Positions 8,195 through 64,000 are shown, counted from the first letter of the stretch. The stretch: DNA of 64,000 nucleotides from Escherichia coli (GCF_011045215.1 NZ_CP049201.1), one strand, 5' to 3'. The notes: generated by a model from the letters alone, not told the origin. Numbers and translations: made by a program.

Positions 8195-8200
8195 GATTAT

Positions 8201-8238
8201 AAGCGCATGTTATTGTTTAACATGCGCTTTTTTATTTT
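8201..8238 (+). terminator. Rho-independent terminator of serW
   Basis: Perfect 12-bp stem AAGCGCATGTTA / TAACATGCGCTT with TTGTT loop, followed by TTTTTTATTTT. Confidence 0.75.
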
Positions 8239-8343
8239 CCCTTTCAGACAGTATGCCATCGGGTATGCCATCTGAAACCGGTTTATATGCCCCGCGATCA
8301 TATCTTATCGGACAATTTCCGATCTTTGAGCATACTGGCAAAG

Positions 8344-9186
8344 CTATACTGCCAGCATATCAGGATAGTGTTTTGCGATAATATCATTCAGTCTGTCAAC
8401 CAGTTCTGGTTTTCTGAACGTGATATGCGCGGAGCCCTTCTTAAAATATCTGATGCTGAACATCTCATCTTCATAGTCCTCTTTACCCTGAACAGACTGG
8501 ATGTGATCATCCAGACGAAGGGTGATGTTTTCCCGGGTGTCGGGGATCGGTTTGCCGCTGAACAGATGCAGCATTCTTTCCAGATCGGCAAGTCTATCTG
8601 CCTGTTGCCCGCTGTTCAGATGAAATCCCCACCGGTCCCATCTCACCAGATTGTTGACGATAATTTTACTGCCAAATTTGCAGGGTGAATTGGTTTTGTA
8701 ATTCCAGCTCAGTCCCCTGAAAACGTTGATCACCCCTCGCTCAAACACTTCATCTTTGTTCTGGTGCAGTTGTTCAAACGTGCTCAGGATATTCGCTTCG
8801 CTGATTTCCGGAAAATTATCGTACTCCAGTGACCGGTACCATGTATCACGGGCTTGTGCATCCATTAATGACAGCATCCCTGAACGTTGCATCAGGTCAC
8901 GCCAGATTTCGCGGTCAAGGTTGCGGGTGATGGCTTTCATTGCGGTTTCCGGTTTCTCCATGAGCCAGCAGCCACAGCGAAAATCCTGTTTCATGGCCCA
9001 GTCCAGTGCGGTTTTACCTCCAATGCTTTCCGTCAGCACCGAGATTTCTGCCAGTTGCCGGATAAGCGTGTCGATTTGCAGCAGTGTACTTTTTCGTACA
9101 GCCAGAATGTGGCGGATACTGGTTGAGCAGATAACGTCCGTATGCCCGTTGACAACTTCCGGACGAGAGGCTGTGATATCAGACAT
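8344..9186 (-). CDS. Conserved island protein of unknown function (280 aa), first gene after serW; possibly DUF4942-like
   Basis: Track ORF; no catalytic motif recognised; family name is from memory only. Confidence 0.5.
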   Translation of the reverse strand: MSDITASRPEVVNGHTDVICSTSIRHILAVRKSTLLQIDTLIRQLAEISVLTESIGGKTALDWAMKQDFRCGCWLMEKPETAMKAITRNLDREIWRDLMQRSGMLSLMDAQARDTWYRSLEYDNFPEISEANILSTFEQLHQNKDEVFERGVINVFRGLSWNYKTNSPCKFGSKIIVNNLVRWDRWGFHLNSGQQADRLADLERMLHLFSGKPIPDTRENITLRLDDHIQSVQGKEDYEDEMFSIRYFKKGSAHITFRKPELVDRLNDIIAKHYPDMLAV

Positions 9187-9282
9187 AATCGATATTCCTT
9201 TTTGCAGATAAATGAAAACGCCAGCCCTGTTCAGGCTGGCGTCAGTGGAATGAAGTCTGGTGAGTGAGATGATGAGTGAAAC

Positions 9283-9480
9283 TCACCGGTTCGGGGGCTG
9301 AAGCTGCAGTTGGCGCAGGGTACGGATATCCTCCCTGGCCTGTTCAATACAGGACAACAGGGCTGTCGAATCCGTTTTATCCTCATCGTTGTCAAAGATA
9401 ATTCCGGATTCACAGTCGATATTGTCCTGCAGCCACGCAATCAGAATATCCAGTGCGGTTTCCGTGGTTAATGATTTCAT
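9283..9480 (-). CDS. Small hypothetical protein (~65 aa from MKSLTTETALDILIAWLQDN)
   Basis: Track ORF 9283..9525(-); upstream part overlaps the preceding gene, so an internal start is assumed. Confidence 0.35.
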   Translation of the reverse strand: MKSLTTETALDILIAWLQDNIDCESGIIFDNDEDKTDSTALLSCIEQAREDIRTLRQLQLQPPNR

Positions 9481-9491
9481 GTTGTTCCTGG

Positions 9492-9980
9492 TTACCAGTT
9501 GAAAGTGGGTAAGCCCGGCAGGCATTCAGCGCTGGCATCCAGATGAATGAGACTGACGCCATAACGTCGGGTAAGTGTGACAACCAGACGACGGAACGTT
9601 TTTGACAGGCCCAGGCGCTTAAGCCGCAGAACCGGGTATGACCACGCACCGGTACGTAACAGATATCCGCTACCTGTGAAATGAATCCATTCTGATTCGC
9701 CAGTGTCATTCGTCTGATGTGATAGTGAGTACAGCCAGGCGTTGTCCTTTGCCGTGATATGCGCGGTACTGCAGCGTATGCCGGTCAGGGCCGCAGATGG
9801 TGGCGTGCGCTCTGCTGATGTCCGGTCAGATTCATCAACAACACGAAGGGAGTAGCCATTGTCGCAGGCCACGTTAATCAGTTCAGCGAGATTAACACCA
9901 TCGACGTCAACGACAATGCGCCCCATGTTCAGCGTCTGCACGTTAATACTGTCAGCTTCCAGCGTCAGGGAAAGTTTCAT
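9492..9980 (-). CDS. Hypothetical protein (162 aa) immediately downstream of the toxin gene (YeeW-position)
   Basis: Track ORF; start overlaps the stop of the upstream toxin gene (translational coupling). Confidence 0.55.
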   Translation of the reverse strand: MKLSLTLEADSINVQTLNMGRIVVDVDGVNLAELINVACDNGYSLRVVDESDRTSAERTPPSAALTGIRCSTAHITAKDNAWLYSLSHQTNDTGESEWIHFTGSGYLLRTGAWSYPVLRLKRLGLSKTFRRLVVTLTRRYGVSLIHLDASAECLPGLPTFNW

Positions 9981-10354
9981 TGTTTCGCCTCCGGATGCTT
10001 ACCCAGGGTAATGTTATTTACCGTTCTGTAATTGTCGCGGGTCATCAGGCCTGTCGCCCGGCGGGCCCGGAGGATATCGATGCTGTTTATTAACTGAGAG
10101 TGGGTACAGGTGCTGAATCCCGGCTGGTCAGTACGCACCAGTGCGTATTTTTCCACGAGAAAGTTCACCGCATCGCACAGTGAAATGCCGGCCTCAATAT
10201 GCTGCTCAATCACACGTTCATCAGCGAACGGTGTGTCATTCAGCGTAAGGCCGTAGTGCTGGTCCAGTAGTCGGGAGAGCAGTGTCTGCCAGATGGTGAC
10301 GGGAGACGGGCTGCGCGATGCCTCCCGTACGTGTGTATCGGGTAATGTTTTCAT
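9977..10354 (-). CDS. cbtA: CbtA/YeeV/YkfI/YpjF-family type IV toxin (cytoskeleton-binding), ~125 aa
   Basis: Track ORF 9977..10495(-); start taken at MKTLPDTHVREASRSPSPVTIWQTLLSRLLDQHYGLTLNDTPFADERVIEQHIEAG..., matching the family N-terminus from memory; which paralogue is uncertain. Confidence 0.8.
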   Translation of the reverse strand: MKTLPDTHVREASRSPSPVTIWQTLLSRLLDQHYGLTLNDTPFADERVIEQHIEAGISLCDAVNFLVEKYALVRTDQPGFSTCTHSQLINSIDILRARRATGLMTRDNYRTVNNITLGKHPEAKQ

Positions 10355-10443
10355 ACTGAAGATTTTCCTGATATGAGAGATTAAATTTTGAGGAGAGTAG
10401 TGCTGTAGCGCACCGGGCCGGAGCAGACGATTATTTCGGTGGT

Positions 10444-10812
10444 TTACTTTTTCGTTTCGGGTGTCGGATAAACAGCCAGATAAACGTAACCACAACTACC
10501 GAGGGTGTCGGCTTTGCAGGTCAGCCCTTTGGCATACAGCGTGACGGTATGCTGATGGCGGGGATTCAGTTCACCGCTGGTGAGCATGAGTTCCAGTTGT
10601 TTCATCAGCAGCGGAAAGGCCTGGTCCAGATGGTACGCATCCGCGTCGCTGAACCGGCCTCTGATACCGGCGCGGTCTGCAAGGTAATGCAACCGGTTAC
10701 CCTCCTGCACCAGACGTGCTCCGAAACAAGGTGTCACGGTACAGGGCAGTCCCCACCAGGGGCGGCCGCGATTGTCGTCGGGATGAGTTGTCTCATGGAG
10801 TGTGTCTGACAC
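10444..10812 (-). CDS. cbeA: CbeA/YeeU/YafW/YfjZ-family antitoxin (122 aa)
   Basis: Track ORF; MSDTLHETTHPDDNRGRPWWGLPCTVTPCFGARLVQEGNRLHYLADRAGIRGRFSDADAYHLDQAFPLLMKQLELMLTSGELNPRHQHTVTLYAKGLTCKAD. Confidence 0.8.
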   Translation of the reverse strand: MSDTLHETTHPDDNRGRPWWGLPCTVTPCFGARLVQEGNRLHYLADRAGIRGRFSDADAYHLDQAFPLLMKQLELMLTSGELNPRHQHTVTLYAKGLTCKADTLGSCGYVYLAVYPTPETKK

Positions 10813-10886
10813 AATAAAATCCTCACAAAAAATCAGTTAAGAATGGTCCGGTGGCAGCGATAATTCTGCTCATCATTTCTCCTGAC

Positions 10887-11108
10887 TCAGTTCAGAGTGA
10901 CGCTCATCAGCCGGACATACGGGCCAAAACTGTCCTTACGGCGTTCTGCAAACACGGCCAGCACACCGGGAATATCCTGCACTTCACGACCGGTATACGC
11001 CTCAGCACTGCCGTGCCAGCGGTATTTGCCGGTACAGAACGGAAAAAGACGGGATGCAGGATGTTGTTGGTGAATACGCATGGCTTCACCACGGGTGATA
11101 ATTTTCAT
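10887..11108 (-). CDS. YeeT/YkfH-like DUF987 protein (73 aa)
   Basis: Track ORF; size and position between the RadC-like gene and the antitoxin match the CP4 island module. Confidence 0.65.
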   Translation of the reverse strand: MKIITRGEAMRIHQQHPASRLFPFCTGKYRWHGSAEAYTGREVQDIPGVLAVFAERRKDSFGPYVRLMSVTLN

Positions 11109-11176
11109 GGTGGGATACCTCTGAAGACAGAAGATAAAAGTGAAAACAGGTGTGATGTGGTTGTGACGGTGACGGG

Positions 11177-11668
11177 TTAAAGCAGACCGTGTTCCGCAAA
11201 GGAGAAAACCTGGTTGCCTCCGACTATCAGATGGTCCGGCACCCGGATGTCCACCAGGGCCAGCGCCTGTACCAGACGTTCGGTGATAAGCCGGTCTGCC
11301 TTACTGGGTGTGACTTCACCGGACGGATGATTGTGTGCCAGCACCACGGCTGCGGCATTGTGATACAGGGCGCGTTTAATCACTTCCCGGGGATGGACTT
11401 CCGTGCGGTTGATAGTGCCGGTGAAGAGGGTTTCACCGGCAATCAGCTGATTCTGGTTATTCAGATACAGCACCCGGAATTCTTCACGCTCCAGTCCCGC
11501 CATGTTCAGAATCAGCCATTCCCGTGCCGCATGCGTGGAGGTGAAGGCCACGCCGGGTTCATGAAGATGGCGGTCCAGGGTTTTCAGGGCCCGCTGAATG
11601 AGACTGCGCTCGCCGGGCGTCATCTCTCCGGGCAGAAAGGAAAGCTGTTGCATTGCCCCTGCCTCCAT
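11177..11668 (-). CDS. RadC-like JAB/MPN-domain protein (YeeS/YfjY/YkfG family)
   Basis: Track ORF; JAMM-like HNHPSGEVTPSKAD motif; true start may be the internal MQQLSFLPGEM. Confidence 0.8.
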   Translation of the reverse strand: MEAGAMQQLSFLPGEMTPGERSLIQRALKTLDRHLHEPGVAFTSTHAAREWLILNMAGLEREEFRVLYLNNQNQLIAGETLFTGTINRTEVHPREVIKRALYHNAAAVVLAHNHPSGEVTPSKADRLITERLVQALALVDIRVPDHLIVGGNQVFSFAEHGLL

Positions 11669-12154
11669 TCAGTCGATGATGCGCATAATGGCGCTGCATT
11701 CCGGATGTTGCAGGGCGTAATCCCGCAACCGATAATAATGGACCGTCATGGCATAACACTCCGTACGACAGGCATGATGACTGTACGTCATCAGACAGGC
11801 GGCAATGCCGGCGGCTTCCGGACTCATTTCAGCGCGGTTACCGTTCATGGCATTGAACAGTACCCATGTTTCGTCATCATCGTCATCCGGTTCGGGTGCC
11901 ATAAATGCCCCGCCGTTGTTCAGGGTGTACAGATTCCAGATACCACCGCAGTAGTCTTCGCACAGACGGTCCATCCAGCCGAAGACACGGGGTTCCAGGG
12001 TCACCCACTGTGGAATGAGGCCAAAGTGCTGCGGCCAGAAGCTGATGCGCTGTTCATCAGGGACGGGAGTGGCAACCAACTGAGACTGGTTATTCCCTGA
12101 TGCAGTAGTTACGGAAACAGAAGGTGTGGTGGAGCTATGCGAAAAGGTTGTCAT
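11669..12154 (-). CDS. Antirestriction protein, ArdB/KlcA family (YfjX/YafX-like), 161 aa
   Basis: Track ORF; conserved WNLYTLNNGGAFMAPE region and acidic DDDDDE stretch; stop abuts the RadC-like start. Confidence 0.75.
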   Translation of the reverse strand: MTTFSHSSTTPSVSVTTASGNNQSQLVATPVPDEQRISFWPQHFGLIPQWVTLEPRVFGWMDRLCEDYCGGIWNLYTLNNGGAFMAPEPDDDDDETWVLFNAMNGNRAEMSPEAAGIAACLMTYSHHACRTECYAMTVHYYRLRDYALQHPECSAIMRIID

Positions 12155-12245
12155 GAGATGATTCCTTATAAAAAGTAAATGAATGGAAGAATGCCTGGGG
12201 ATTGGTACAGACGTGAGTCAGGGCTGCACTTTCAGGGAAACAGCA

Positions 12246-13064
12246 TTAGCGCATGCTCTCCAGCAGCGTTTCTGCCATCACCCACAATGCGCGATTGAGC
12301 TTAATGTCCGTGTCGATGCTGTGAATGGCACGGGTGTGGATACGTTTTCCTTTAGCGCTGCGACCGGAAATTCCGCCTTTCAGCATATTCTCCTGAATGG
12401 TCTGATAAGCACTCCACAGGTCCTTACCGTAATCCTCCCTGCGTCGTGGTGTCAGAATGTCGGCGGTGGTGACGGGCTGATGTTCGTCACCATAACGGTA
12501 AGTCAGTGCCGCCTGTGCCAGCGCCTGGTGTGCCGGTGGCGGCAGAATCAGCGACTGCATGGCATCACGCTTTTCCTCAATCCGGTCAAAAACGCCCACC
12601 ACTTCGTAAGCCCCTTCAATAACTTTCTCCACCACGTCTCCCCGGTGCGGAACACGCACCTCTCCCAGAGACTGACCGCAGACGCACCCGTTCTGACAAA
12701 CGAATCTGAAGTAACCCGGCAGCATCTGGTAGCTGGAGGTACCGTCATGGGAATTGAGCAGGATGATTTCCGGGACATGCTGTCCGTTTATCTCTCCGGC
12801 CCGCCGCAGACGCAGCATGTGTTTGGTATACCCCCGGCGGCCCGGGTCACGTACGCGGGTCTGGCAGGCGAAGAAGGGCTGAAAGCCCTCCCGCTGCAGA
12901 CTTTCCAGCACGGTGATGGTGGGGATATACGTATAGCGTTCACTGCGGGAGGTATGCCGGTCTTCCCCAAAAATACCGGGTACATAGTGCATCAGCTCTT
13001 CATGTGTCAGCGGACGGTCACGGCGTATCTGGTTCGCATAACCAAAACGACTTGCTAATCGCAT
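12246..13064 (-). CDS. DUF932-family protein (YafZ/YfjQ-like), 272 aa
   Basis: Track ORF; size and position near the GTPase end of the CP4-type module. Confidence 0.7.
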   Translation of the reverse strand: MRLASRFGYANQIRRDRPLTHEELMHYVPGIFGEDRHTSRSERYTYIPTITVLESLQREGFQPFFACQTRVRDPGRRGYTKHMLRLRRAGEINGQHVPEIILLNSHDGTSSYQMLPGYFRFVCQNGCVCGQSLGEVRVPHRGDVVEKVIEGAYEVVGVFDRIEEKRDAMQSLILPPPAHQALAQAALTYRYGDEHQPVTTADILTPRRREDYGKDLWSAYQTIQENMLKGGISGRSAKGKRIHTRAIHSIDTDIKLNRALWVMAETLLESMR

Positions 13065-13338
13065 GATCTGCTCCTTATGAATGATTAAGCGGTATAAATG
13101 AAAAAGCCGCAGCTCCCGGAGAAGACGCGGCCTGATGGATGATGTTTATTGTCTGAGGTACCCTTCACGGGCGGGCCACGCATTAAGCTGTTATGACAGC
13201 AACCGCCTGCCCGTATGAGAAAGATCCTTCAGCCAGGACATACTCTGTGTAACCCGGCATATCTGTTTTCTCCTGATAAATAAAAAGCCTCTGCCACGCG
13301 TTGTGACAGAGGCTGAAGCATGAAACTGACTTCAGGGA

Positions 13339-13794
13339 TCAGTTAACGTTTTTTCCGGAAACGGTAATTAGCAGTGGATGGTAGTCCTGGGGATCGAAAA
13401 CCGATAACGGCAGACTGACACGATGGCCGTTACTTTCTTCAGTTGCTTTAATGATTTCGGTTGTGGCGACATTTTCCACGCACTCCGTTTCCAGAAATGC
13501 GTCTGTGGTTCGCGTGGCATCACTGTCACCAAAGGCTTCCGTTTCCATTTTTCTGGTCACCAGCCTCTGACCATATTTGTCTTTGAGTTGCAGAGTGATG
13601 GTGAGGGGGCCAAATCCTTCTCCGTTTCCGCCATTATCCAGCCGGAACTGGTAAGCACAAATATTTCCCGGGAGCCATATCGTATCTGTATTGCGTATAC
13701 TGATGTAACGTTGATCCTGTGCCCGGAGTGGGGCAGACCACGTTAACCCCAGAATGACGCCGGTAATAATGCAGGTTTTGAACAGGTGAATCAT
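13339..13794 (-). CDS. Secreted/periplasmic hypothetical protein (151 aa), YfjT-like
   Basis: Track ORF; N-terminal signal-peptide-like MIHLFKTCIITGVILGLTWSAPLRA. Confidence 0.5.
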   Translation of the reverse strand: MIHLFKTCIITGVILGLTWSAPLRAQDQRYISIRNTDTIWLPGNICAYQFRLDNGGNGEGFGPLTITLQLKDKYGQRLVTRKMETEAFGDSDATRTTDAFLETECVENVATTEIIKATEESNGHRVSLPLSVFDPQDYHPLLITVSGKNVN

Positions 13795-13869
13795 GGTATT
13801 TACCTCTCTGAGTCATGACGATGACACTGACAAATCAGGTGATAAAACGTAAAAGGTGCAGAATACTCG

Positions 13870-16392
13870 TTATGCCGGTAACTCCGGGGGTAATGCTTCT
13901 TCCAGCCGGTTAACCATATTGCCGAGATGGGATGCATCATATTCCATGACGGGGCGTTGCCTGATGATACTGACCACCAGTGGTTTGATTAACATATTGG
14001 TCGCGGCCCGTTGTTGTATACCGGCGGCGAAAATGATCTCCAGAGCATTCTGATCGATAACACGGGCCAGATTCGCGTTCAGATTTTCTGTTTCATGTCC
14101 GGTCAGCAGGAAACTGCCGGCAAGCCATGTCACCTGTTCCTGAATCATTGCCAGAATTTTGACGCGATCTTCTTCAACCAGCGCTCCGGCAATTTTTCCT
14201 GATACAGCGGAGGCAATCATTCCCCCCAGAACACCGCCAACCACACGCCCTGTCAGTGCACCAAATGGTCCCAGTGGACTGAACAGTATCCCGCCCGCCA
14301 CTGACCCGACAGCTCCACCTGCCACACCGGAAGATGCCACGGCAAGATTCCTGATGAACTGCGTACCGGAGATCCGTCCCCGCAACATTTTGATCATGTC
14401 AGGGCCGGTTGTGACAGCTACCAGTGCCAGAGATGTCACCAGCGTACCCTTCATCACTTTGTTCAGGGCACTGATATTTCCTGCACCGGTCCCCTTCTGA
14501 AGAGCCAGTCGGACAGTCGGGCTGGCAGTCGAAAAATCAATGTGCTTCAGCATACCCTGAACAACACTGAGCCGGTGGAGTTGCTGGGTTGTGACGTAGA
14601 CAGCCAGTGTGCGGGTGAAGGTTTTTCCTGCCTGGACAGCAGCTGTCTGCAGAGCAGCATCGCGATCGCCGGTGCTGAGCCAGAAGACCGATGCCGTCAG
14701 GGCAAAACTGATCCCTCCGGCCGCCAGACTGACAACCGAACCCTCGGCAATATCATAAGTGACCGATTCGATGGTCCCGAACCGGGTGATATTACGGGCC
14801 TGAGTATAAGTCAGATGTCCCCGACGAATCAGCCGGGACGCTTCTGCGGGATCGATTACACCGGGTACTTTACCTTCGCGGATCTTATTCCTCATGGTTT
14901 CAACAGCGCCGGCATACTGATCACGGGGGACTTCCAGTTGCATGGGGCCATTATTTCCCATGTAACGATACTGTCCGTTTTGTCCGTCGAATGCCGCACC
15001 GACGCTACGGGCTGCAGTTGAACAATATTTCGTCTGGATTTCTGTTCCGCTGACCAGTCTGTCTGCTCCATTTCTGGCATTATTATCACCGAGGATCCGT
15101 GCGTTTTTCAGACGGATTCTGTCGACAATATGGTTTCCCCGTTCAGCGGCAAACCCATGTCCCTGCCCTCCGGAAGCAAACATTTTCTCATTTGTACTCC
15201 AGGTTTCCGGCAGTTTCATGAGAATCAGACCATTCGCCGTTGCATCGGAAATAAAACTGTTGTAGGGGCGTTCATAAATTTCCTGACACAGTGTTTCTGT
15301 TTCGCGACAAAGAGAGGAGCAGTACCATTCCGGATCCGGCTTATGATTTTCCGGGGCATGATGTACTTCTGTCAGCCCGCAGGAGGCACAGACACGAAGC
15401 TCATCCACGTGATGGAATGATACAAAACGGCGACCTTCTGAAAAGGGATACCAGTCACCGCCGTCCAGGCAACGATCGAGAAAATCGTCATTCGCTTCCG
15501 GTGATAAATTCAGGCGGTTCCGGAAGAGTGTTTTCAGTTCATCAGGTGTGAATGACAGGTTCTCTTTCAACTGTTCGTTAAACCCTGCCATGTTTCTTTC
15601 ATACCAGGCATTGTTCAGTAACCAGTTTCCGTCTGCCAGTTCAAATTCCCTCAGCTCTCCCCGGGAAATCCGTTGAGAAATAAGCGTCAGCCAGATGCGC
15701 TCCGTCAGTGAGTCAGGAAGGCTGTAATCGTTTTGCAAACTGGTCAGCCACGATTTACTGTTGAGCACCGGTTGTTCTTCCAGTGTCTGGCTGATGGCAC
15801 AGGTCAGTTTTTTCAGCGCCTGGATTTGGCTGGCCGCCCATAGCAGCGTCACTAATGCAGCCAGCCAGTACAACAACCCGCCCCACCACATCAGTGACGG
15901 TGAAATATCGTACTGTAACGCGATCAATGGTGCGCATGCAGAACAAGCCATAAGGAAAAAGGCAGTATAAAAACAGCAGTAATATCCGTTAATTTCCTTG
16001 CTGATATCTTCTGGTGTGATCCCGTTCTGCTGAATGTTTTTGATCTGCAGGGGAACAGCCAGCAGACCACCGGCGAGAGCGGTGGTCAGAATAAATTTCA
16101 CGGAGTCAAAGGTGTGAGACTCCAGCGCAATATGTTTACCATCAAGTCCCCACATGAAGCTGATGATCATTCCGGCAATCGTCAGAAATACGCCTGCCAG
16201 CCAGCGAATATGGAACAACCGGGTTATGCGTTCGGTGATATAGCCAGCCAGTAAGGCCGGGCCGAACAGACACAGCAATATGAGCCCTGCCAGCGCAGAA
16301 GCCGTGCTGATTAATGCTCTGAACAAAAGGCGAAGAATGGCAAATCCTGCGATCAGCAGGATCAGCGCGCCGACTATCTGTAACATAGTCAC
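13870..16392 (-). CDS. Large inner-membrane protein of unknown function (840 aa), YeeR-position downstream of flu
   Basis: Track ORF; hydrophobic N-terminal ~250 aa; central cysteine cluster CASCGLTEVHH...CSSLC; Gly-rich hydrophobic C-terminal third. Confidence 0.6.
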   Translation of the reverse strand: MTMLQIVGALILLIAGFAILRLLFRALISTASALAGLILLCLFGPALLAGYITERITRLFHIRWLAGVFLTIAGMIISFMWGLDGKHIALESHTFDSVKFILTTALAGGLLAVPLQIKNIQQNGITPEDISKEINGYYCCFYTAFFLMACSACAPLIALQYDISPSLMWWGGLLYWLAALVTLLWAASQIQALKKLTCAISQTLEEQPVLNSKSWLTSLQNDYSLPDSLTERIWLTLISQRISRGELREFELADGNWLLNNAWYERNMAGFNEQLKENLSFTPDELKTLFRNRLNLSPEANDDFLDRCLDGGDWYPFSEGRRFVSFHHVDELRVCASCGLTEVHHAPENHKPDPEWYCSSLCRETETLCQEIYERPYNSFISDATANGLILMKLPETWSTNEKMFASGGQGHGFAAERGNHIVDRIRLKNARILGDNNARNGADRLVSGTEIQTKYCSTAARSVGAAFDGQNGQYRYMGNNGPMQLEVPRDQYAGAVETMRNKIREGKVPGVIDPAEASRLIRRGHLTYTQARNITRFGTIESVTYDIAEGSVVSLAAGGISFALTASVFWLSTGDRDAALQTAAVQAGKTFTRTLAVYVTTQQLHRLSVVQGMLKHIDFSTASPTVRLALQKGTGAGNISALNKVMKGTLVTSLALVAVTTGPDMIKMLRGRISGTQFIRNLAVASSGVAGGAVGSVAGGILFSPLGPFGALTGRVVGGVLGGMIASAVSGKIAGALVEEDRVKILAMIQEQVTWLAGSFLLTGHETENLNANLARVIDQNALEIIFAAGIQQRAATNMLIKPLVVSIIRQRPVMEYDASHLGNMVNRLEEALPPELPA

Positions 16393-16506
16393 TCCGTGAT
16401 GAATATCATGTTATTGTTAATGCCAGCGAATGTGGCGTTGAATATCCGTTGCGCCGGTCCGGGTCCCGATCATGATGACCGGGACCACAGAGAGGCGATG
16501 GTTCTG

Positions 16507-54804: not shown

Positions 54805-54819
54805 TCTGATAAACCTGAC

Positions 54820-55347
54820 TTATCTCTCCGGCACATCCACAGCAAGCGGGTGCTGCACACGCCACTGGCGCGCCTCTTCACGACTGACCTGTGCACCCCG
54901 GAAATTCATCACCCGCAACCCGGTCTGCTGCCCACGGTGGTACAGCGAACGCCAGCACAGACGGGGAAAAATATCCTGCCGGACAAGACGACTCATATCC
55001 GGGGTATGTCCAAAAGGGGCAATCCAGTCACAGACCCACATCCGGTCGCCGCTGTTCCAGTCCGACTGAGGCATGAGAATTGCCGGCTGCGTAAGATAAC
55101 GCGCCTCTGCCTCCGGGCTGAGCCAGGCCTGGCTCATGAAGAAAACCGGTCGCCCCTGCTCTGTTGCCACCACATACTGTCGGTGCTTAATCACCGGCAG
55201 CAGCAGGTCCGGCAGGGTATGCAGTGGCGCATCACGATGCAGGGGGGAGTGCATCCACAACCAGACGGCCGCCCCCAGAACTTCCGCCTCATTGACCGGC
55301 TCACCGGAATACAGGGGACTCAGAACGTCATATTTCCCGTTACGCAT
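54820..55347 (-). CDS. cdiC: CdiC, HlyC/CyaC-family toxin-activating lysine acyltransferase (175 aa)
   Basis: Track ORF; VWLWMHSPLHRDAPL and SGDRMWVCDWIAPFG align with the HlyC motifs SWLWASSPLHRNWPV and SGDRKWFIDWIAPFG (HlyC recalled from memory); lies between cdiB and cdiA. Confidence 0.85.
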   Translation of the reverse strand: MRNGKYDVLSPLYSGEPVNEAEVLGAAVWLWMHSPLHRDAPLHTLPDLLLPVIKHRQYVVATEQGRPVFFMSQAWLSPEAEARYLTQPAILMPQSDWNSGDRMWVCDWIAPFGHTPDMSRLVRQDIFPRLCWRSLYHRGQQTGLRVMNFRGAQVSREEARQWRVQHPLAVDVPER

Positions 55348-55356
55348 GAAATTTTC

Positions 55357-57096
55357 TCAGAAATCCCGGAACAGATTAAAACCGGCTGTCACATCACTCG
55401 TCATAAAACCCGCCGGTTTTGAAAACGGACGACCGATGAAAACGTCATAATCCGTACTGAACAGTTGCCCCCTCAGCCCCACAACACCACCGGCCAGATG
55501 ACGTCCCACCAGGTATTCACTGCCGGCTCCCCCCACCTCGCCGTAATCCATTCCCAGATATAACGCCTGCTCCGGCAGTGGCGTACGCCAGGCCAGGTCG
55601 TTGCGGATATACCAGCCGTTACTGGCATTCAGCGTTCGCTCCCCGTCAAAACCACGAACCGTCCAGCGGTTACCGATGGCAAACTGTTCCTGTGGGGTCA
55701 GCGGGGTATTGCTCAGCTGGCGCTGATACCGGAAGGAATAACTGAAGGGCTGCCCTGCAAGGGTAAAGGGCAGATTAAAGGATGCATTCAACTGCAGGAT
55801 CTTACTGAGCGCCGTTGCCTCACCGAACGTTTCTTCCGGCGCCGGCTGTGCACCAAACCAGCGGGTTCCCCGTTGCCAGCTGACACCAGCATCCAGTGTG
55901 GCCTGAGAAATATAATGACGGTGCTGCAGCCCAAGTCGCCAGGCCGCTGTCTGCCGGCGCTGCACCTGGATTTCCGTATCATTAATGTAGTTACGCGACC
56001 TGCGGGCCTGAACATCGTAGGTCAGCACCGTTTTCTGCGTCCCGTTACGGTGCAGTACCCGGCTCAGCTGCATACCCAGATTCTGACTCTCGCCACTGTA
56101 CTGGTAATCCTCAACCGCACCAGCTACCGTCTGATGGTAATCGTAATCACTGGCGGTGACGGAAAACTGCCAGTAGCCGAAAGGCACAGAGTAATGGGCC
56201 GTGTAGTTTTTACTGCCCTTACCCCCGTAATGTGGAAAATTACGGGTGGCAGAAACATACAGCAGGTCACTCAGGGAAAAAGGATTATCCAGAGAAAATG
56301 TTATACCACCGAGATAACGCCCTGTGCTGCGGGTACCTGAATCATCAAGCGAAAACCCCAGTCGCCAGTATTTGTCCTGTTTGCGGGTAATAAGAATGTC
56401 ACTTTCCCCTGGCTGCTCACCGGGTACAATTTCCATATCAGCCTGCACACCCGGCAGTCGTTGCATATTCTCCAGCCCCTGCTCAATGTCCCGTAAATCC
56501 AGCAGAGAACCTTCGTGTGCCGGGAATGAGGAATACAACTGAATATAGTCATCACTGTCCGGTGTCAGACGCACATGTCGCACAACACCGGGAATAACAA
56601 CCAGCCGGAGGATACCGCTTTTTAAATCCTGCGAAGGTGCCAGAACACGGGTGGTGACATAACCATGATCGACCAGACGGTTCTGCAATGTACTCATCAG
56701 CAGATTAATTCCTTTCGCCCCCAGGCAATGCCCGACCGCCCCGTTGGCGATTTTTTGTAAAGGCAGCCAGTGTGGTAACGCATCAGCCCCCTCCAGTTCC
56801 GTCTGTTTAATCTGAAAACAGGGCGTTTCAACAGGAAAATTAATCTTACGGGCAAAAGAGCCAGGTGCAGAAAGGCGAACATCAGGGGCTGAAGGCGTCA
56901 GTTGTTGCTCAAGGGCTTCCTGACGCTGCTGCTGAATGATAAATGCATTATCTCCGCTACGCCGGACATCCGCGGCCTGAAGAGATAAAGGCGATAATAA
57001 AACAGACATCAGTGTCAGTGACAGCAAGGACGGACAGCGCCGGAATACGCTTTGTTCCTCAGCCCTCTCGTTCCTGCAACATAATTTTCCAGTCAA
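55357..57096 (-). CDS. cdiB: CdiB, TpsB/Omp85-family outer-membrane transporter (579 aa)
   Basis: Track ORF; signal peptide at the internal start [15 protein letters not shown] (~57009); C-terminal beta-barrel ending ...AGFNLFRDF. Confidence 0.88.
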
Positions 57097-57303
57097 ACGA
57101 AAAACCTTTTATTCATGTCATACCAACAATCACCAGCCTCCTGACGATACCTCCCACCATGTTTTGCGATGGTACGCTACCGCCCTTCCGGTATTTACCC
57201 GCATCAACCGGTACCAGAATGTTGAGTAATAAATTTGTCAACTCTGAATTGGTTTAATTTTGATCATTATAGAATGAAGATCTGAAAATTCTCAATATTG
57301 CAG

Positions 57304-57321
57304 ACATATCGATCGATATGT
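57304..57321. promoter_or_regulatory. Perfect 18-bp palindrome containing GATC, ~210-300 bp upstream of cdiB
   Basis: ACATATCGATCGATATGT is self-complementary; function not established. Confidence 0.3.
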
Positions 57322-57687
57322 AGTTATCACGTAGTTATTTATTCCAACTAATATCGCAAAAGCAGCATATTGCAAAACTTATAACCACGGAGAACAAAAA
57401 ACGACAGAAAATTATTCCGTAAGATGCTTCAAATACAGCCAGTCAACACTGAAAAAAGTGATTTTTGATTAAAATCATTGAAGTTTATGCAGTACAGAAT
57501 CTGAGCGGTTCTCAGCGAAAGTCAGAAGAAAGGGAGGTGAGGTAAAAGGCAGAAATCAGAGTGACAGGAATGCACAAAAAGCAAAAAAAAATCAACAAAA
57601 CAATAAATTAACATACCCCGAAAAAGCATCCGCAACGTACCGGGTAATAACAACAATATCGTGTAAAACAACATTGTTCCGGAAGTT

Positions 57688-57879
57688 ATGTCTGAAGATA
57701 TCCCGTTACCCAAAGTCGGTCAGCGATACAGAGACGATCATGGTGCGCTTGTCACCGTAACCAGTGTTGAGGAAACCCGGGTGGTATTTATGCGGGACGG
57801 CTATCCACATCCCTGTATGCGGCCAATGTACAACTTTCCAGGAAAATTCAAACCCGAACCCCGGGAAGAAACAGAATAA
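57688..57879 (+). CDS. Small hypothetical protein (63 aa), possibly DUF4222-like
   Basis: Track ORF; an antisense ORF 57706..57981(-) overlaps it and is judged less protein-like; family name from memory. Confidence 0.35.
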   Translation: MSEDIPLPKVGQRYRDDHGALVTVTSVEETRVVFMRDGYPHPCMRPMYNFPGKFKPEPREETE

Positions 57880-57931
57880 AACGAAATTCCTGCCGGCAAT
57901 CACACTGCCTGATGGCAGCATAATCCACTTT

Positions 57932-58165
57932 TTAATTCTCATCCCCGAAGACAAGCCCAGAAAACCACTCCGGGTGTTCACTGTATGCCGTGTTCAGCGC
58001 ATCCCAGGAAACGTTTATATAAAAGCTGTCCTGCAATCTGCGGGTAACAACTTCTGCCAGGCGATTCCGGTTATCCGCCAGTCCGGCATAACCTCTCTCT
58101 GCCAGCCACTCATTCAGTTCATGTTCCAGAGACAGATTGATAATATCGTAATCGGACCTTGCCAT
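57932..58165 (-). CDS. Small hypothetical protein (77 aa)
   Basis: Track ORF; no motif recognised. Confidence 0.4.
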   Translation of the reverse strand: MARSDYDIINLSLEHELNEWLAERGYAGLADNRNRLAEVVTRRLQDSFYINVSWDALNTAYSEHPEWFSGLVFGDEN

Positions 58166-58251
58166 TCCCGTTTCCTTAGCACATGTTTTCAGGCACGGGT
58201 AAAAGTATAAAGAATGTCATACTGCTGCCAGAGCCCCCCCTGATGGTCGTA

Positions 58252-58911
58252 TCAGAGATGGTATGCCGGCACTTTGCGGGTTGTTCCCGTCAGGTTATCG
58301 TGCACCTCCACATTCGTTGTCACTACCGGCATTCCGCTCTGTCTTAATCTCAGGACATCAGCCGCAATACGCTGACTGCCAGACCAGAACAGCCCGTCCA
58401 GTGCGGTCACCAGTAAACCTGCTTCCAGCGCATACTTCAGCCGTTCACGGGACGCTTTCACTTCCCGGGCAACCTGCTGATATGGCAATGATGTGTTTTC
58501 ATTCCCAACCACGCGACGAATACGGTGAGACAGATGATACCGGAATGTATCTGGCACACCCGAAAGGCTGGCCTTCAGGCTGTACACGCAGCCAAAGCGT
58601 TTATCGTTAAACACCACATTTTTCTGGCTGATGCCCCATTCTTCACGCAGCGCGGCAATCAATTGCGGTGTCCGGGTAAGCAGCAAGCGAAAAGGCAGTT
58701 CAAAACTGGTGACGTAATCCACATTCAGCAGTGCAATACGCAGCCGTTCTTCTGGCCCGGCCTCTGTCTGCCGACACTCCTCCAGAACATCCTGCCACTG
58801 CCGGCGAAGACGGAGGGATTCGTTCCGTTCTGTAAAACAGTATTTATCCGCCAGATAGTCAACTCGTGTACGCATACTGAAAAGAATTCCGTATAAAAAT
58901 TCATCTGACAA
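58252..58911 (-). CDS. Hypothetical protein (219 aa)
   Basis: Track ORF; no motif recognised. Confidence 0.5.
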   Translation of the reverse strand: MSDEFLYGILFSMRTRVDYLADKYCFTERNESLRLRRQWQDVLEECRQTEAGPEERLRIALLNVDYVTSFELPFRLLLTRTPQLIAALREEWGISQKNVVFNDKRFGCVYSLKASLSGVPDTFRYHLSHRIRRVVGNENTSLPYQQVAREVKASRERLKYALEAGLLVTALDGLFWSGSQRIAADVLRLRQSGMPVVTTNVEVHDNLTGTTRKVPAYHL

Positions 58912-59932
58912 AACTTTATCAGTCCATAAAAATCAACGGAAGCACAGATGATTCACTCGTCCATTACCAACGGATTTTGCCAATAACCCTGGCGTTGACA
59001 ACGGGTAACATAAAAGACAAAGACTGAACAACTGTTTTTAACGGCGATACTGCATGATTTCATCGCCATCCGTCACCGTCATATCCACCAGATGAAACAA
59101 CTCTGTGCAGGTTTTATCCGCAATTTCCGGATTATCAAAACACGTCGGTCAGTTCATGTTGTACGGGGACGGGCTGCGCTCCCCATGACAGAACATTATC
59201 GATATCACCAGCATACGTGCCACTCAAAGTGTTACGGCATCGTACGGCGTGGTCATGTTCTTCTCTTTTTCCTGTTCACAATAACCTGCTTAACGGTCAG
59301 AAGGCATTTTCACCAGGATTATATTCACCTGTACAACCATGTTCAGCCATGACCGCTGATAAGTGAACATCCGGAGTATATTATTCTGCCGCTGTTGAAT
59401 TGCCAGTAAGCTCCCGGTCCTTTGCTCCGGCACACTGTTTTTGTTCCTGGCTCTCTGTCTGAGGTGAAACCTTCCAGGTATGTCGCCCCATTTTTGTTCG
59501 TCTCCATTTTTTTAAGAAGTGCTCAAGTGAAAAACTTTTTACCTCTCCGGGAGTTGTCGTATTTGCTGATATTGTTCGTTTGTTTAAAGAACCTGCTGGT
59601 CTTGCCATTAATATTACCTGCTGATTGCTTCACGCCCGGGCTCCTCGCACTGTGCGCGGGTTATTGTTTCGTTTTCAGTCCCGGGGGCGCCAGGACTCTG
59701 TTTGCAGACCATAACGGCCTGACCTGTACTGTTTCTTCGGCTCTTTGATGCCCGTTTACGCCATTTGTTCCCTGCCCCTCTGTCTGATAACGAATACGCT
59801 CACTACGCACAGCACTGAACAATACCGGCAACAGCATGTCTTACATGACATTCGCTGTGCCATCCACCGGAAAACATTTTCAGATACCGGATGAGGTACC
59901 ACTTCCATTAACAGCACGAGGTAACAATACTG

Positions 59933-60409
59933 ATGGTAACGCTGGCCATTAACCGTAAACCGCAGGGTATTTTCAGTAAGTCACCGGCAACGCCGCTGCA
60001 GGATAAAACGAACACAGTACACAACGAGAAGCCTCTTCGGGTGAGGAATCAAACACCATGGCGACATATGACAAAACGCCAGCGCAAAAACCGTAAGCGT
60101 ATAAATCGTCTTGTGGAACTCTGGCCTGAGTTATTCAACCGGGAAAAACCAAAACCGCTTAAAGTGGGGATACCTGACGACCTGATACAGGATATCGCCA
60201 TCAGAAAACTGGCGTTTGGCGCAGGTACATTACGCGCGGCAGTGGCGTCTTATGTGCAGTCTCCGCGCTATTACCGTACGTTAATGGCAGGTGGCGCCCG
60301 TTACGACCTGAAGGGGCAACCGTGCGGAGAGGTGACACCACATGAACAGAAAGAGGCAGAGAGCCGTTTAATGATGCTGAATGACCGACGAAAAGCCAGA
60401 AAGCGCTGA
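59933..60409 (+). CDS. FinO/ProQ-family RNA-binding-domain protein
   Basis: Track ORF; LVELWPELFNREKPKPLKVGIPDDLIQDIAIRKL...GARYDLKGQPCGEVTPHE matches the FinO/ProQ fold signature; basic N-terminus; start may be the internal MTKRQRKNRKR (~60068). Confidence 0.65.
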   Translation: MVTLAINRKPQGIFSKSPATPLQDKTNTVHNEKPLRVRNQTPWRHMTKRQRKNRKRINRLVELWPELFNREKPKPLKVGIPDDLIQDIAIRKLAFGAGTLRAAVASYVQSPRYYRTLMAGGARYDLKGQPCGEVTPHEQKEAESRLMMLNDRRKARKR

Positions 60410-60410
60410 T

Positions 60411-60959
60411 TCACTGAGCTGTAATCAATGTACAGCGCTGTACCGGACGATGGATAATGGCGGTCACAACCGGTAACCCCAGAGACAATGCGACTGTTTT
60501 TAACGCAACATACTGGCCGGATGTATCACCCCGGGCAACCCGAAAACACTTTTCCACCCGGCATTGTCCGCCAGCGCTTATCACCTGCCAGGTCTGTTGT
60601 AGTAAATCCACCAGTTGTGAACATTCTTCATCAACTGTCACACTGGCTCGCGGATGGCAAATGCTCGTCTGGCTGAGCAGCAACAGGCATCGCATTGTTG
60701 CTCCTCCATGTTGTTCCCGCAACCAGCGTAATACCAGCGGCGATGATGGACTGGCCGTGTGATTACGCTCAGTAATACGTTCGTGCACCTGTCGATAAAA
60801 GGAAGTACAGAATGTCTGAACCTGTTGTCCGTTGATGTTTCCTTCAGCCGAATGGAGCGTGAAGTGGACTGCCAGCAGACGCGGCCAGTGGTCCACCGCC
60901 TGCTGAACAAAACGCCGGATGTCTCCCGGCTCTGAAAGTAATACTTCGGTTATTTGCAC
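60411..60959 (-). CDS. Hypothetical protein (182 aa)
   Basis: Track ORF; no motif recognised. Confidence 0.45.
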   Translation of the reverse strand: MQITEVLLSEPGDIRRFVQQAVDHWPRLLAVHFTLHSAEGNINGQQVQTFCTSFYRQVHERITERNHTASPSSPLVLRWLREQHGGATMRCLLLLSQTSICHPRASVTVDEECSQLVDLLQQTWQVISAGGQCRVEKCFRVARGDTSGQYVALKTVALSLGLPVVTAIIHRPVQRCTLITAQ

Positions 60960-61225
60960 GAAATGTTCCTTTTCGAATCCTGTTGAATTTTACTGATCCG
61001 GTACAGACACGCAGGAAAACACGCCTGCACCGGTGTAATGCCAGTTACAAACAATAAGAACGGAAGGACGAATCAGTCAGGAAATGATGACAAACCGTTC
61101 ACTGACCGGAGGATACCACCAGGAAGGTTAACGGGAGAGTAACCGGTACCAGGGACAGGGCCGGGTTCCACAATACCAGCGCCGGCATTTCGCACATTGC
61201 CAGCGTACCGGCATCCCAACACGTT

Positions 61226-61459
61226 TCATGCTGCTGACCCTCGTGATTCTTCGATTCGCTGCTGCATCCACTGCTCCACTTCGCTTTTGTACCAGCGGCT
61301 GCTGCGACCCAGTTTGATGGGTTTAGGAAAATGGCCTTCACTGATCAGCCTGTAAAACCATTTATCGGTCATGCCGGTGAAACTGGTGATGTAGTTCATG
61401 TCGATCAGGGGATCGTCGGCACGCAGCAACACGCTGTCGTGGCTTATTGTGGTCAACAT
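61226..61459 (-). CDS. alpA: AlpA-family phage regulatory/excisionase-like DNA-binding protein
   Basis: Track ORF; FTGMTDKWFYRLISEGHFPKPIKLGRSSRWYKSEVEQWM is the AlpA-type HTH; start may be the internal MNYITSF. Confidence 0.75.
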   Translation of the reverse strand: MLTTISHDSVLLRADDPLIDMNYITSFTGMTDKWFYRLISEGHFPKPIKLGRSSRWYKSEVEQWMQQRIEESRGSAA

Positions 61460-61527
61460 GGTCAGAATATCCTCTGTAAGATTTATGAAGGTTGTGCGAA
61501 TGCGGGGAAAGATGCTGAGCCGTGTTT

Positions 61528-62133
61528 TCAGAACGGCCCTGCAGATCCGGGATACCCGGGATTACCGGCGAGGCAACGGGCTTCCGGATCGCACACATCA
61601 CGACGAGCGCGGGCGAAATCACTGAACGCCCAGATAAGGTCTTTAAACAGGGCTTCGCAGTCCGGTGACCGGCGATCCAGTACCACATCCCGGGTGATCT
61701 GCTTCTGGTACGGCTTTGCTTCACCTGGTGACGCGAAGCCCAGCACGTTACTCCAGGCATCCAGAATCAACCGATCCAGCTCAGGGCCATCGAAATACTC
61801 CTGTCTGACGCACAGCACCACGTGGTATTCCGGTTTTTCAGGATGACGGGTCAGGAGCCAGCAGAGGTCACGTCCGGGTGTTGCATTCATCAGCGCACTG
61901 ACGGTTTCGATAAAATCCATACCAAACCAGGTCTTTCTGCTGCTGAAGGTATTGTCATATTCACACGGCAGACGAAGCAGGATCCGCCGTATCCGGGAGC
62001 CGGACTGCTCACGCAGCGCACGCTCAAGGACACCGATAACTTTGCTCTGATAAGATGGCCAGAAAGGTGCCAGGCTATAGTCGAAATAAGGGATAGTATT
62101 CATAAGATATGCTCCGTTATGCGCAGCCCACAA
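61528..62133 (-). CDS. Island-associated hypothetical protein (201 aa), YfjI/YfjJ-neighbourhood type
   Basis: Track ORF; position directly upstream of alpA. Confidence 0.5.
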   Translation of the reverse strand: MWAAHNGAYLMNTIPYFDYSLAPFWPSYQSKVIGVLERALREQSGSRIRRILLRLPCEYDNTFSSRKTWFGMDFIETVSALMNATPGRDLCWLLTRHPEKPEYHVVLCVRQEYFDGPELDRLILDAWSNVLGFASPGEAKPYQKQITRDVVLDRRSPDCEALFKDLIWAFSDFARARRDVCDPEARCLAGNPGYPGSAGPF

Positions 62134-62360
62134 TGCGTCCTGCCCATGAATGAGCTGACGTGTTATAGCTTGCGGATGGGGTTGATGGAATAAGTGAAGA
62201 ACCGAAGCAGAACGGAAAGATCAGGTCACCGACAAGGGACAGAACACTGGATATGGTTCAGGGCGAATAATCTCCGTTGACTTCAGTTCACATCATTAAG
62301 CAAGGTGGTAAGGTTTTACCGACGGAATGTTTCCAGGACAGGAAGCTCAGGATTTAAGTT

Positions 62361-62927
62361 TCAGAAGTGAGGCTTACGAGGACGCCCTGCAGCAGGTCGT
62401 TCAGGAACTTCATTGCAGCCGTAGGCGCACAGCCCGTCTTTTTGTTCTTCTTTCGCCAGATAATGCAGGACACCGCGAATATTATCGATGCTCCCGGGAT
62501 CGTTATGACGCACGGGGATGTTGATGTTGTATGTATAATGCGGCTGATATGTACAACGGTGCACCGAACCGCTGTTATGCGTAATAGACCGCCAGCATTC
62601 CGTAATCCGCTCCGCAAAGGGATATACTTTTTTAACCCTCTGACGATCGATCCAGAAAACCGCATGCGCATGAAAACCATGATCAACCGTCCATTCAATC
62701 ACCCAGAAGAAGCCAACCATATTTTCAAATTGTTCCGCCTGCTCCAGCAGCATACGTAACTGTAATTCAAGCCAACGATGATCAGGTTGTAAGAAATCAG
62801 GCGTATCTTTCCTGTAGAAGAAATCCATGCGTAAGGCCCGCAGGCAGGAATAGCGTGCTATCATTTGATTGATGTGATTGTCAAATAAAGCGGTAAAAAA
62901 CCAGTTTGGTGTGTAAGATTTAGGCAT
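62361..62927 (-). CDS. Inovirus Gp2-like (YagK/YfjJ-family) protein with an HUH-like motif (188 aa)
   Basis: Track ORF; HGFHAHAVFW contains a His-hydrophobic-His motif typical of rolling-circle Rep-like proteins. Confidence 0.55.
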   Translation of the reverse strand: MPKSYTPNWFFTALFDNHINQMIARYSCLRALRMDFFYRKDTPDFLQPDHRWLELQLRMLLEQAEQFENMVGFFWVIEWTVDHGFHAHAVFWIDRQRVKKVYPFAERITECWRSITHNSGSVHRCTYQPHYTYNINIPVRHNDPGSIDNIRGVLHYLAKEEQKDGLCAYGCNEVPERPAAGRPRKPHF

Positions 62928-64000
62928 GCTGATGACTCCTGAAAGTTAATGACGTTTTAAGTGCTGTAAGCGAATTAATGCTTTCGCTCATAATCAGATC
63001 TAAAACGGTAATAACTTACAGACGGTATTTATCAGGCATGCTGTAACAGAATGGATACGTCGGTTATTAACGACACGCAACGTTGTGCTGAAGGGAATGG
63101 GTCATCTGATGGCATTGACTAAAGAAATGAGATAAACGAGGAGTAAAAAAATACAGATTCAATAAAACACAATGAAACACTGCAAAATACGCAATAAACC
63201 CCCACTACCAGGAGATTAAGAAACATATTACGACCAATAACATCATAAACTACAAACTTGCTCTCAGTGAGTCTGAAAAAACGTGTACAAGGCCAACACA
63301 TATCTGTAACCTGATAAAATCATACACTCTCATTTAATCTGTTAAAAACAACTCATGTTCAAGATATGAACGTTAACGGGTACACGGTACCAGAATGAAA
63401 CATACCATTGATGGATAATTTTCATTTTGTTTAACATAAAAGATAATCAGAAACGAACAGACATAATCAGGAATTCACCCTGTTAATTTCATTGTTTATC
63501 CTGCGCTGTTAAACATGACGGAATCATAGACACCTTATCAAAGAGTAAACATTCAGTTAATCAGTGATGACAGAAGAATTGATGTTCACCAGAATAGTTA
63601 AAACACTTCAGATAAACAATTATTGTTAAACAATGATAACGCATGACGGACAAGATTAAAATCAATTACTGTCTCACTGAACATGAGAACAGATGAATAT
63701 CTGTCAGTAGAATGGTAGAGAATACACCTGAATATCATATGAGTTACAATCGTCATGATTGAGATATGGATGGAGAGGATATTGTTATAATAGTGACAGT
63801 GAAGACTGGAGAAGGACATGAGTGAGTATAACTGGATGAAAATAATAGTAATGGAATGTGTAAAGATAGAGAGGAGAGATGAATGACAAAGATGGATAGA
63901 AAATAAAGAGACAGATATTAATTATAGTAATAAACCTAAATTAAAATTATCCATATCTGATGAGTAAAAATAAGAAATCCTACGTCCTGAATACAAGCCT

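Follow-up and report, generated by a model that had tools for sequence, protein, structure and literature searches.

Which end of a genomic island should be expected to touch the tRNA gene at which it has inserted? The question is raised by a stretch of 64,000 nucleotides from Escherichia coli (GCF_011045215.1, NZ_CP049201.1; hereafter the window), in which an island occupies positions 8195 to 64000, next to the tRNA gene serW. An earlier note on this DNA had observed that the toxin-antitoxin end of the island abuts the tRNA, that the window holds no integrase, and that AlpA/Gp2-like genes lie at the far end. All three observations are borne out by our analysis: DUF4942, DUF957, DUF5983, CbtA and CbeA come first after the tRNA, searches of the window for an integrase with tblastn and Pfam were negative, and the AlpA/Gp2-like genes are found at 60-63 kb. 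The note had further regarded this layout as anomalous for a CP4-type island, and had explained it by an inversion of the acquired region, by tandem accretion of several elements, or by anchoring through an integrase and a repeat beyond 64 kb. We find instead that the layout is standard at serW and serX and is shared by CP4-6, while CP4-57 shows the opposite one. The last of the three explanations is the best supported, as a P4-family integrase and a 14-bp repeat are found by clpA in relatives. We propose, with a probability of roughly three in four, that 8195-64000 is the tRNA-proximal 56 kb of an island of the SRL-PAI / OI-43 / OI-48 kind, in normal orientation at serW, with the integrase gene (int) and attR beyond 64 kb by clpA.

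The tRNA-side boundary can be placed to the nucleotide. According to ARAGORN, run on the whole window, the single tRNA gene is that of tRNA-Ser(GGA) (8107-8194, plus strand). The 8 kb upstream of it carry trxB, cydD, cydC, aat and infA, with up to 99.3% identity to E. coli chromosomes, and because the cydC-aat-infA core flank lies upstream, the tRNA gene is serW. Relative to K-12, where clpA comes next after serW, the window is reverse-complemented. The comparison with the K-12 serW-clpA junction that the earlier note had recommended gave a clear answer, with homology to the empty site stopping at the CCA, position 8194. When K-12, the window and E. coli 1303 are aligned, the window is the same as K-12 up to the CCA and diverges completely after it, and therefore the foreign DNA extends from 8195 to the window end. 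Its first part, 8195-8650, is 95-98% identical to the serW junction in 281 genomes, and also to O157:H7 at serX. Two hallmarks of the SRL-PAI / OI-43 / OI-48 group are thus present: the insertion is at the 3' end of tRNA-Ser(GGA), with the crossover inside the last 14 nt, and the tRNA-side arm of the island is homologous to that of known members. Within this arm, the terminator scan found an intrinsic terminator that begins 6 nt past the CCA (stem at 8201-8229, followed by a T run), with a fold of -17.4 kcal/mol and a z of -8.4. The native serW terminator sits at the clpA-side junction (attR) in 1303. Besides supplying the last 14 nt of serW, the island replaces the native serW terminator with the one in its own arm.

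The window was searched for the other end of the element. Six tyrosine-recombinase queries were used in tblastn (the serW integrase of 1303, taken twice, IntA, IntF, a pheV integrase, and the short recombinase of the 1303 island), and the best E-value in the window was 0.19. In 39 open reading frames (ORFs) of the window, Pfam recognized DDE transposases but no tyrosine integrase. The 14-nt core at the serW end, CCCCCTCACCGCCA, has one match in the window at up to 1 mismatch (0.03 expected by chance) and no second copy, and no further copy of the 25-nt tRNA 3' end was found at up to 3 mismatches. Since CCCCCTCACCGCCA occurs once in the window, the second boundary of the island lies beyond 64 kb. 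The 25-mer of the tRNA 3' end also had no repeat match in E. coli 1303, because the repeat is only 14 nt long; it was the three-way alignment that revealed the 14-nt repeat. With CP4-57 as a control, the topology of the window is not of the CP4-57 type, as DUF4942 is the first gene after serW and no integrase occurs within 56 kb. The serW island of 1303 carries a second, short tyrosine-recombinase gene (200 aa) by its GTPase module, at 31736-32338 of the extracted 1303 segment; tblastn detected no counterpart in the window.

Relatives were sought among 5,426 complete E. coli genomes. In E. coli 1303, serW is followed, as in the window, by DUF4942, CbtA and the GTPase, all read toward the tRNA, and the island ends 58 kb off with a 402-aa integrase adjoining clpA. 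This integrase has the P4-type set of domains (arm-binding, central and catalytic) and is 34% identical to IntA of CP4-57 over its full length. Between it and clpA lies CCCCCTCACCGCCA, then the native serW terminator with K-12-type downstream sequence, i.e. attR; the terminator sequence past the attR core is TATTTAAAGAAGAGCTCGTACGAAAGTGCGAGC. In 1303, 644-PT8, CP131_Sichuan, TB354 and EC2, CCCCCTCACCGCCA lies on the clpA side of int, separated by 160 nt from the start of the integrase gene, and the genomes of Z1323CEC0018 and TUM1886 each have the serW junction 40-47 kb from the clpA-int junction. Seven of the eight inspected serW islands are intact, and all seven inspected complete genomes that combine the serW junction with an intact far end have a P4-family integrase by clpA, together with the 14-bp repeat derived from serW. 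Over the whole sample, the serW junction of the window was detected in 281 genomes and the clpA-attR-int junction in 223. Roughly one sixth of evenly spaced match rows represent the tRNA-DUF4942 junction without the serW upstream flank; the one such row that was checked belongs to O157:H7, where ghrA flanks serX and the toxin end likewise abuts the tRNA.

For the far part of the window, a parallel is found in EC2, whose intact 88-kb serW island has the skeleton of window 36-62 kb in the same order and orientation. The shared segments comprise the AAA helicase, the ImpA remnant, the sequence upstream of CdiB, DUF4222-ECs1377, YagK and AlpA. Past them, EC2 has about 35 kb more cargo, then Gp2, DUF3987, int, the core and clpA. 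In the strain under study, int and attR beside clpA probably lie 5-35 kb past the window. The earlier note had named, as an outcome that would speak against an anomaly, an integrase and tRNA-derived repeat immediately beyond the window and the same arrangement in related strains as a single mobile unit. As to the second part, strains with serW islands do share the arrangement and OI-43 excises as one unit (PMC3064760); as to the first, the second boundary is probably several to tens of kb past 64 kb, rather than immediately beyond.

In TB354, two copies of the 14-bp core occur between clpA and int, 163 nt apart (a 177-nt offset), at 8623-8636 and 8800-8813 of the extracted segment; they may have been left by an earlier integration, or by a tandem array that was subsequently reduced. 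The serW island of CP131_Sichuan carries phoH, pgaD, pgaC and a truncated pgaB between insertion sequence (IS) elements (33672-36804 of the extracted segment). On the K-12 map, phoH and the pga genes are presumably located near serX, in which case the two loci, serW and serX, would seem to have exchanged DNA.

The literature on known systems agrees with this picture. OI-43 and OI-48 of EDL933 are flanked by perfect 14-bp repeats, TGGCGGTGAGGGGG, equal to the last 14 bp of serW and serX (PMC3064760); TGGCGGTGAGGGGG is the reverse complement of CCCCCTCACCGCCA. There, clpA and ycdU are on the integrase (5') side with the cryptic ser'W or ser'X, and the intact tRNA is at the opposite end (PMC3064760). 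The OI-43/48 integrase is 99% identical at the nucleotide level to that of the Shigella SRL PAI, and complete excision was reported in 1.8e-3 (OI-43) and 2e-4 (OI-48) of cells (PMC3064760). These islands (the tellurite-adherence island or SpLE1, at serW/serX of O157:H7) resemble that of the window in the target tRNA, in the 14-bp repeat, in the DUF4942/CbtA/CbeA/Cah end set against the intact tRNA (about 95% identity over window 6000-12000) and, on the reading proposed here, in the integrase on the clpA/ycdU side and in excision as a unit. On the other hand, the window lacks ter, ure and iha, and has a contact-dependent inhibition (CDI) locus, helicases, a type VI secretion remnant and several IS elements. 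Excision of the SRL PAI needs int, and the island targets serX, with serW as an alternative site (PMC7545054, a review); judging by the literature, it is like our island in the serX/serW targeting and, on the reading proposed here, in the 14-bp direct repeats and integrase-dependent excision, and unlike it in its resistance and fec genes, absent in the window. The experimental basis of excision by the integrase is confined to OI-43/48 and the SRL PAI. The general rule in the literature says only that int is found near one end of an integrative element (PMC7192596). Closest at serW itself are the islands of 1303, CP131_Sichuan, TB354, 644-PT8 and EC2, 92-98% identical in the junction and the distal module; 1303 and 644-PT8 have a CdiB-CdiA locus oriented as in the window, and 644-PT8 also has CdiC.

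Two K-12 elements, CP4-6 and CP4-57, have opposite polarity. In CP4-6, at thrW, the toxin ykfI and the antitoxin yafW are next to the tRNA 3' end and read toward it, and intF lies 34 kb off at the far boundary, as in our reading of the window; the tRNA is another one, and IntF is only remotely related to the serW integrase (a local match, E 0.002). CP4-57, at ssrA, has the same internal order as the family (int, alpA, yfjI, yfjJ, cargo, GTPase, DUF932, antirestriction, RadC, DUF987, antitoxin, toxin) but the opposite polarity, with intA beside ssrA and the toxin end distal. The window possesses this CP4-type backbone, i.e. an ordered and co-directional set of genes from the GTPase through the toxin to DUF4942, each member with a Pfam match except DUF957, which is recognized by homology to 1303. 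The claim that all genes are transcribed toward the tRNA holds for most of them: of the 41 non-overlapping island ORFs that reach 100 aa, 31 read toward serW, on the minus strand (37.5 kb vs 6.8 kb, about 85% of the coding length). It fails for the AraC-type regulator, ProQ/FinO, DUF4222 and the IS transposases, which read away from serW; antisense artefacts and IS transposases account for several of the ORFs on the plus strand. The toxin end by the tRNA with a distal integrase is the rule for serW and serX islands, the layout has already been described, and the island of the window is another mosaic member of a well-described family.

From the anatomy of these islands we infer a mechanism. 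A P4-family tyrosine integrase would act on a core of 14 bp, the same sequence with which serW and serX end. When the element is circular, its attachment site would be located between the DUF4942 end and the int start, and would consist of about 149 nt, the 14-nt core and 160 nt. Upon integration, the polarity of the core would place the DUF4942/toxin-antitoxin end against the intact tRNA (attL), and int would come to lie near clpA, at attR, where the displaced copy of the 14 bp is joined to the native serW terminator. The order int-alpA, cargo, GTPase, cbeA-cbtA-DUF4942 would be that of CP4-57, and only the polarity of the core with respect to int would differ; since this polarity is reversed, the whole element would read toward the tRNA.

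Several observations weigh against the proposed location of int and attR. Of the 281 genomes in which the serW junction was detected, as many as about 58 do not show the standard clpA-int junction at the thresholds used, a figure that assumes that the 223 are a subset of the 281, with co-occurrence in the same genome confirmed in the seven inspected genomes only. For window 57-64 kb, the nearest matches (about 91%) come from pheV/selC islands, where this block precedes variable cargo, a 732-nt Gp2-family gene and a divergent GTPase-to-toxin module, with no integrase. Finally, the strain that best matches window 12-25.7 kb, C5 (NZ_CP010122.1, 3761000-3898000), has a serW island joined to the distal part of a pheV island: serW and the toxin end are followed there by a CDI block, an oppositely oriented second CP4 module and yghD-gsp-sslE-glc. 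As yghD, gsp and glc flank pheV, the arrangement of C5 points to a large inversion of the chromosome, which took place between the islands at serW and pheV. The best far-end matches (F2_407_2_2, FXCREC035, STEC367, TUM13754, CFS3273, JNEC-KY177, SFE8 and ST130) are at pheV, selC or other sites, never at serW, and therefore do not predict how the island of the window ends.

With these data in view, we consider it unlikely, though well within the range of the reasonable, that the far end of the island is rearranged or truncated. We give the same modest weight to the prospect that a C5-like recombination with an LAA-type island at pheV/selC, through an inversion on the megabase scale, would have left int and attR stranded or lost and the island unable to excise. 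The LAA / PAI I-CL3 type islands at pheV and selC are 90-97% identical to window 30.5-62 kb, with which they share IbrAB, PerC, the AAA helicase, the PagC-like Ail/Lom protein, two-partner secretion/CDI genes and the DUF4222-to-AlpA segment. They differ in that the integrase is beside the tRNA and that the block and the neighbouring GTPase-to-toxin module are read in opposite directions, whereas in the window the two are co-directional, at serW. To judge by a review table, the block of the window would correspond to named LAA modules. In its specific form, the explanation supposes a hybrid island, produced by recombination with a pheV- or selC-borne LAA-type island via homologous blocks or IS copies, with inversion of a large segment. 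It predicts a divergent GTPase-to-toxin module and core genes of the pheV/selC side past 64 kb, and int and attR elsewhere, by clpA. C5 has exactly such a structure, window 30.5-64 kb is most similar to pheV/selC blocks, and IS elements are present at the would-be seam, 26-36 kb. However, all but one of the eight serW islands that were inspected have stayed intact and have int at clpA, and EC2 has the same skeleton inside an intact serW island, the regulatory module at 57688-62927 being collinear there but more divergent (81-92%). Moreover, the CDI core (46456-57482) is equally similar, with 95.5% identity, to its counterpart in 644-PT8, an O157 strain whose serW island is canonical and intact. 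We therefore regard such a hybrid as distinctly the less plausible origin.

Rather more improbable is the loss of the integrase end by an IS-mediated or other deletion, with an immobile remnant held by attL alone. Many IS elements in the window, the excess of serW junctions over int junctions (281 vs 223), and the O157 derivative strain 95S, which lost the int-side repeat and clpA (PMC3064760), are in keeping with such a loss. Nonetheless, the integrase-side module (AlpA, YagK/Gp2) is intact at 57-63 kb, the island runs on at 64 kb, and int has been kept in most relatives. We give very little credit to a tandem array from successive integrations at serW, the accretion contemplated by the earlier note, in which the toxin end and the AlpA/Gp2 end would belong to different elements. 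Tandem islands do exist at pheV, TB354 has a double 14-bp core on the clpA side, and the composition of the island is mosaic (GC from 0.35 to 0.58). However, within the window neither a second core nor a longer copy of the tRNA 3' end was found when mismatches were tolerated, an integrase is absent even as a remnant, and only a single GTPase-to-toxin module is present, while the mosaicism is accounted for by IS elements and homologous exchange. The local inversion, a flip of the island in place relative to serW that only the expectation of int beside the tRNA would favor, is practically excluded, because it would have put the int-side arm at the tRNA, where the conserved attL arm is found (95-98% identical in hundreds of genomes), with the crossover exactly at the CCA. 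We thus retain, as the most probable reading, the island in normal orientation, with its integrase by clpA. The features identified in the window are collected in Table 1.

Table 1. Features of serW and of the island in the window (positions counted from the first letter of the window).
Feature	Position	Strand	Basis or remark
serW, tRNA-Ser(GGA)	8107-8194	+	intact, identical to K-12 serW; island inserted at 3' end
attL core CCCCCTCACCGCCA	8181-8194	+	last 14 nt of serW; sole copy in window
Island-derived arm of attL (P' arm)	8195-8343	+	149 nt; unlike K-12, like 1303 island
DUF4942	8344-9186	-	Pfam PF13708, E 1.6e-69; last gene of conserved distal module, first after serW
DUF957	about 9271-9468	-	position transferred from RefSeq annotation of 97.7%-identical 1303 segment
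DUF5983	9492-9980	-	Pfam
CbtA toxin	inside ORF 9977-10495	-	Pfam PF06755, E 1.6e-60
CbeA/YeeU antitoxin	10444-10812	-	Pfam PF06154, E 1.2e-54
DUF987, RadC/JAB, antirestriction protein, DUF932, IrmA-like, YeeR-like (840 aa), Cah/Ag43 autotransporter, YeeP-like GTPase	10887-20639	-	Pfam; 92-97% identity to annotated 1303 and C5 serW islands
IS-rich variable cargo	21249-36348		Pfam; IS-end inverted repeats; names from relatives
IS481-family IS	21249-22280
371-aa protein, unknown	within 21249-36348		listed between IS481-family IS and EAL protein
EAL protein	24798-25730		Pfam
AraC-type regulator	within 21249-36348	+	Pfam
IS3-family IS	about 27426-29106
IbrB-like and truncated IbrA	between IS3-family IS and ISEc12
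ISEc12 (IS21 family)	about 30953-33428		100% identical to CP131 copy
IS4-family IS	about 33367-34952
PerC	within 21249-36348		listed after IS4-family IS
LAA module III-like block	36349-45314	-	Pfam; 95-97% collinear with pheV/selC islands, collinear with EC2 serW island
AAA_11/AAA_12 + DUF2726 helicase	36349-39030	-	Pfam
ImpA/VasL type VI secretion remnant, 405 aa	39657-40874	-	Pfam ImpA_N and VasL, fused
NERD + UvrD helicase	41300-43126	-	Pfam
Ail/Lom (PagC-like) outer membrane protein	within 36349-45314	-	Pfam
200-aa "adhesin" ORF	within 36349-45314	-
CDI locus	45353-57096	-	CdiB, CdiC, CdiA, candidate immunity gene
CdiB	55357-57096	-	Pfam ShlB/POTRA
CdiC acyltransferase	54820-55347	-	Pfam HlyC
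CdiA, 3078 aa	45568-54804	-	Pfam TPS/Fil_haemagg/PT-VENN; one intact ORF
Candidate immunity gene, 72 aa	45353-45571	-	assigned by position alone
Regulatory module typical of integrase-proximal side	57688-62927	- (mostly)	RefSeq names on homologous blocks, about 91% identity
DUF4222	within 57688-62927	+
ECs1377-family gene	within 57688-62927
ProQ/FinO	within 57688-62927	+
YagK/YfjJ	60411-60959
AlpA family	61226-61459		Pfam PF05930, E 1e-10
201-aa protein, unknown			listed between AlpA and second YagK/Gp2-like gene
YagK/Gp2-like (second)	62361-62927
AT-rich, ORF-poor stretch, 1.1 kb	62928-64000		GC 0.40; leaves window, island continues past 64000

In the conserved distal module, the genes to which Pfam gave no name were named after the annotated islands of 1303 and C5, which are 92-98% identical. 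An 80-aa ORF at 9286-9525, tried as a candidate for DUF957, had no Pfam match. CbtA and CbeA make up a type IV toxin-antitoxin pair.

The IS-rich cargo next to this module bears signs of rearrangement. A perfect 33-nt inverted repeat (29074-29106 / 30924-30956) flanks the IbrB-like gene and the truncated IbrA; one of its arms is the end of the IS3-family element, and the other adjoins ISEc12 and resembles a solo IS end. The position of PerC relative to IbrBA differs from that in SFE8 and ST130, which suggests a local, putatively IS-mediated, rearrangement. In the following block, the two helicase genes look like possible defence genes. The 405-aa ImpA_N/VasL ORF stands alone, without the remainder of a type VI secretion system (T6SS) cluster; at the same position, selC/pheV islands (STEC367, TUM13754) have a full T6SS cluster, and in the window, as in other pheV islands, the space of this cluster is filled by a CDI locus.

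The VENN motif of CdiA falls at residues 2733-2783. Neither the C-terminal toxin of CdiA nor the 72-aa ORF downstream of it matched a Pfam family. In the RefSeq annotation of the relatives 644-PT8, C5, JNEC-KY177 and SFE8, CdiA or CdiB is split or partial, and in the window both are intact. The last segment, 62928-64000, contains only one low-complexity ORF among ORFs of at least 70 aa, and is 88-90% identical to the same position in pheV/selC islands, where the AT-rich stretch precedes a slot with strain-specific cargo (YfjI, ireA, a nuclease, IS elements).

The combination of cargo as a whole was found in none of the 5,426 complete E. coli genomes searched, and the best cover of any 24-kb piece of the window by a complete genome is about 75% at most; for the core flank, the best complete E. 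coli genome matches at 99.3%. The only exact match of the ProQ/FinO protein in public assemblies is a 1.27-kb contig of run SRR11014969, and the 188-aa Gp2-like protein has no exact match on record. Nor did an exact 48-mer from near the window end (63870-63917) have a match in the species-representative genomes or in metagenome contigs. The source lineage seems to be poorly sampled. The mix of a 3078-aa CdiA with CdiC, two helicases, a type VI secretion remnant and a PagC-like protein is ordinary island mosaicism.

Thus, the locus does not represent a new biological arrangement. What it corrects is a rule of thumb: not all E. coli islands have the integrase next to the tRNA, and since K-12 itself holds both layouts (CP4-57 and CP4-6), the generalization fails already for a textbook CP4 element. 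In islands at serW, serX and thrW one should expect the toxin-antitoxin end to touch the tRNA, and the integrase with a partial copy of the tRNA to be found at the far end, which is of use for annotation and for the setting of island boundaries in short windows or draft contigs.

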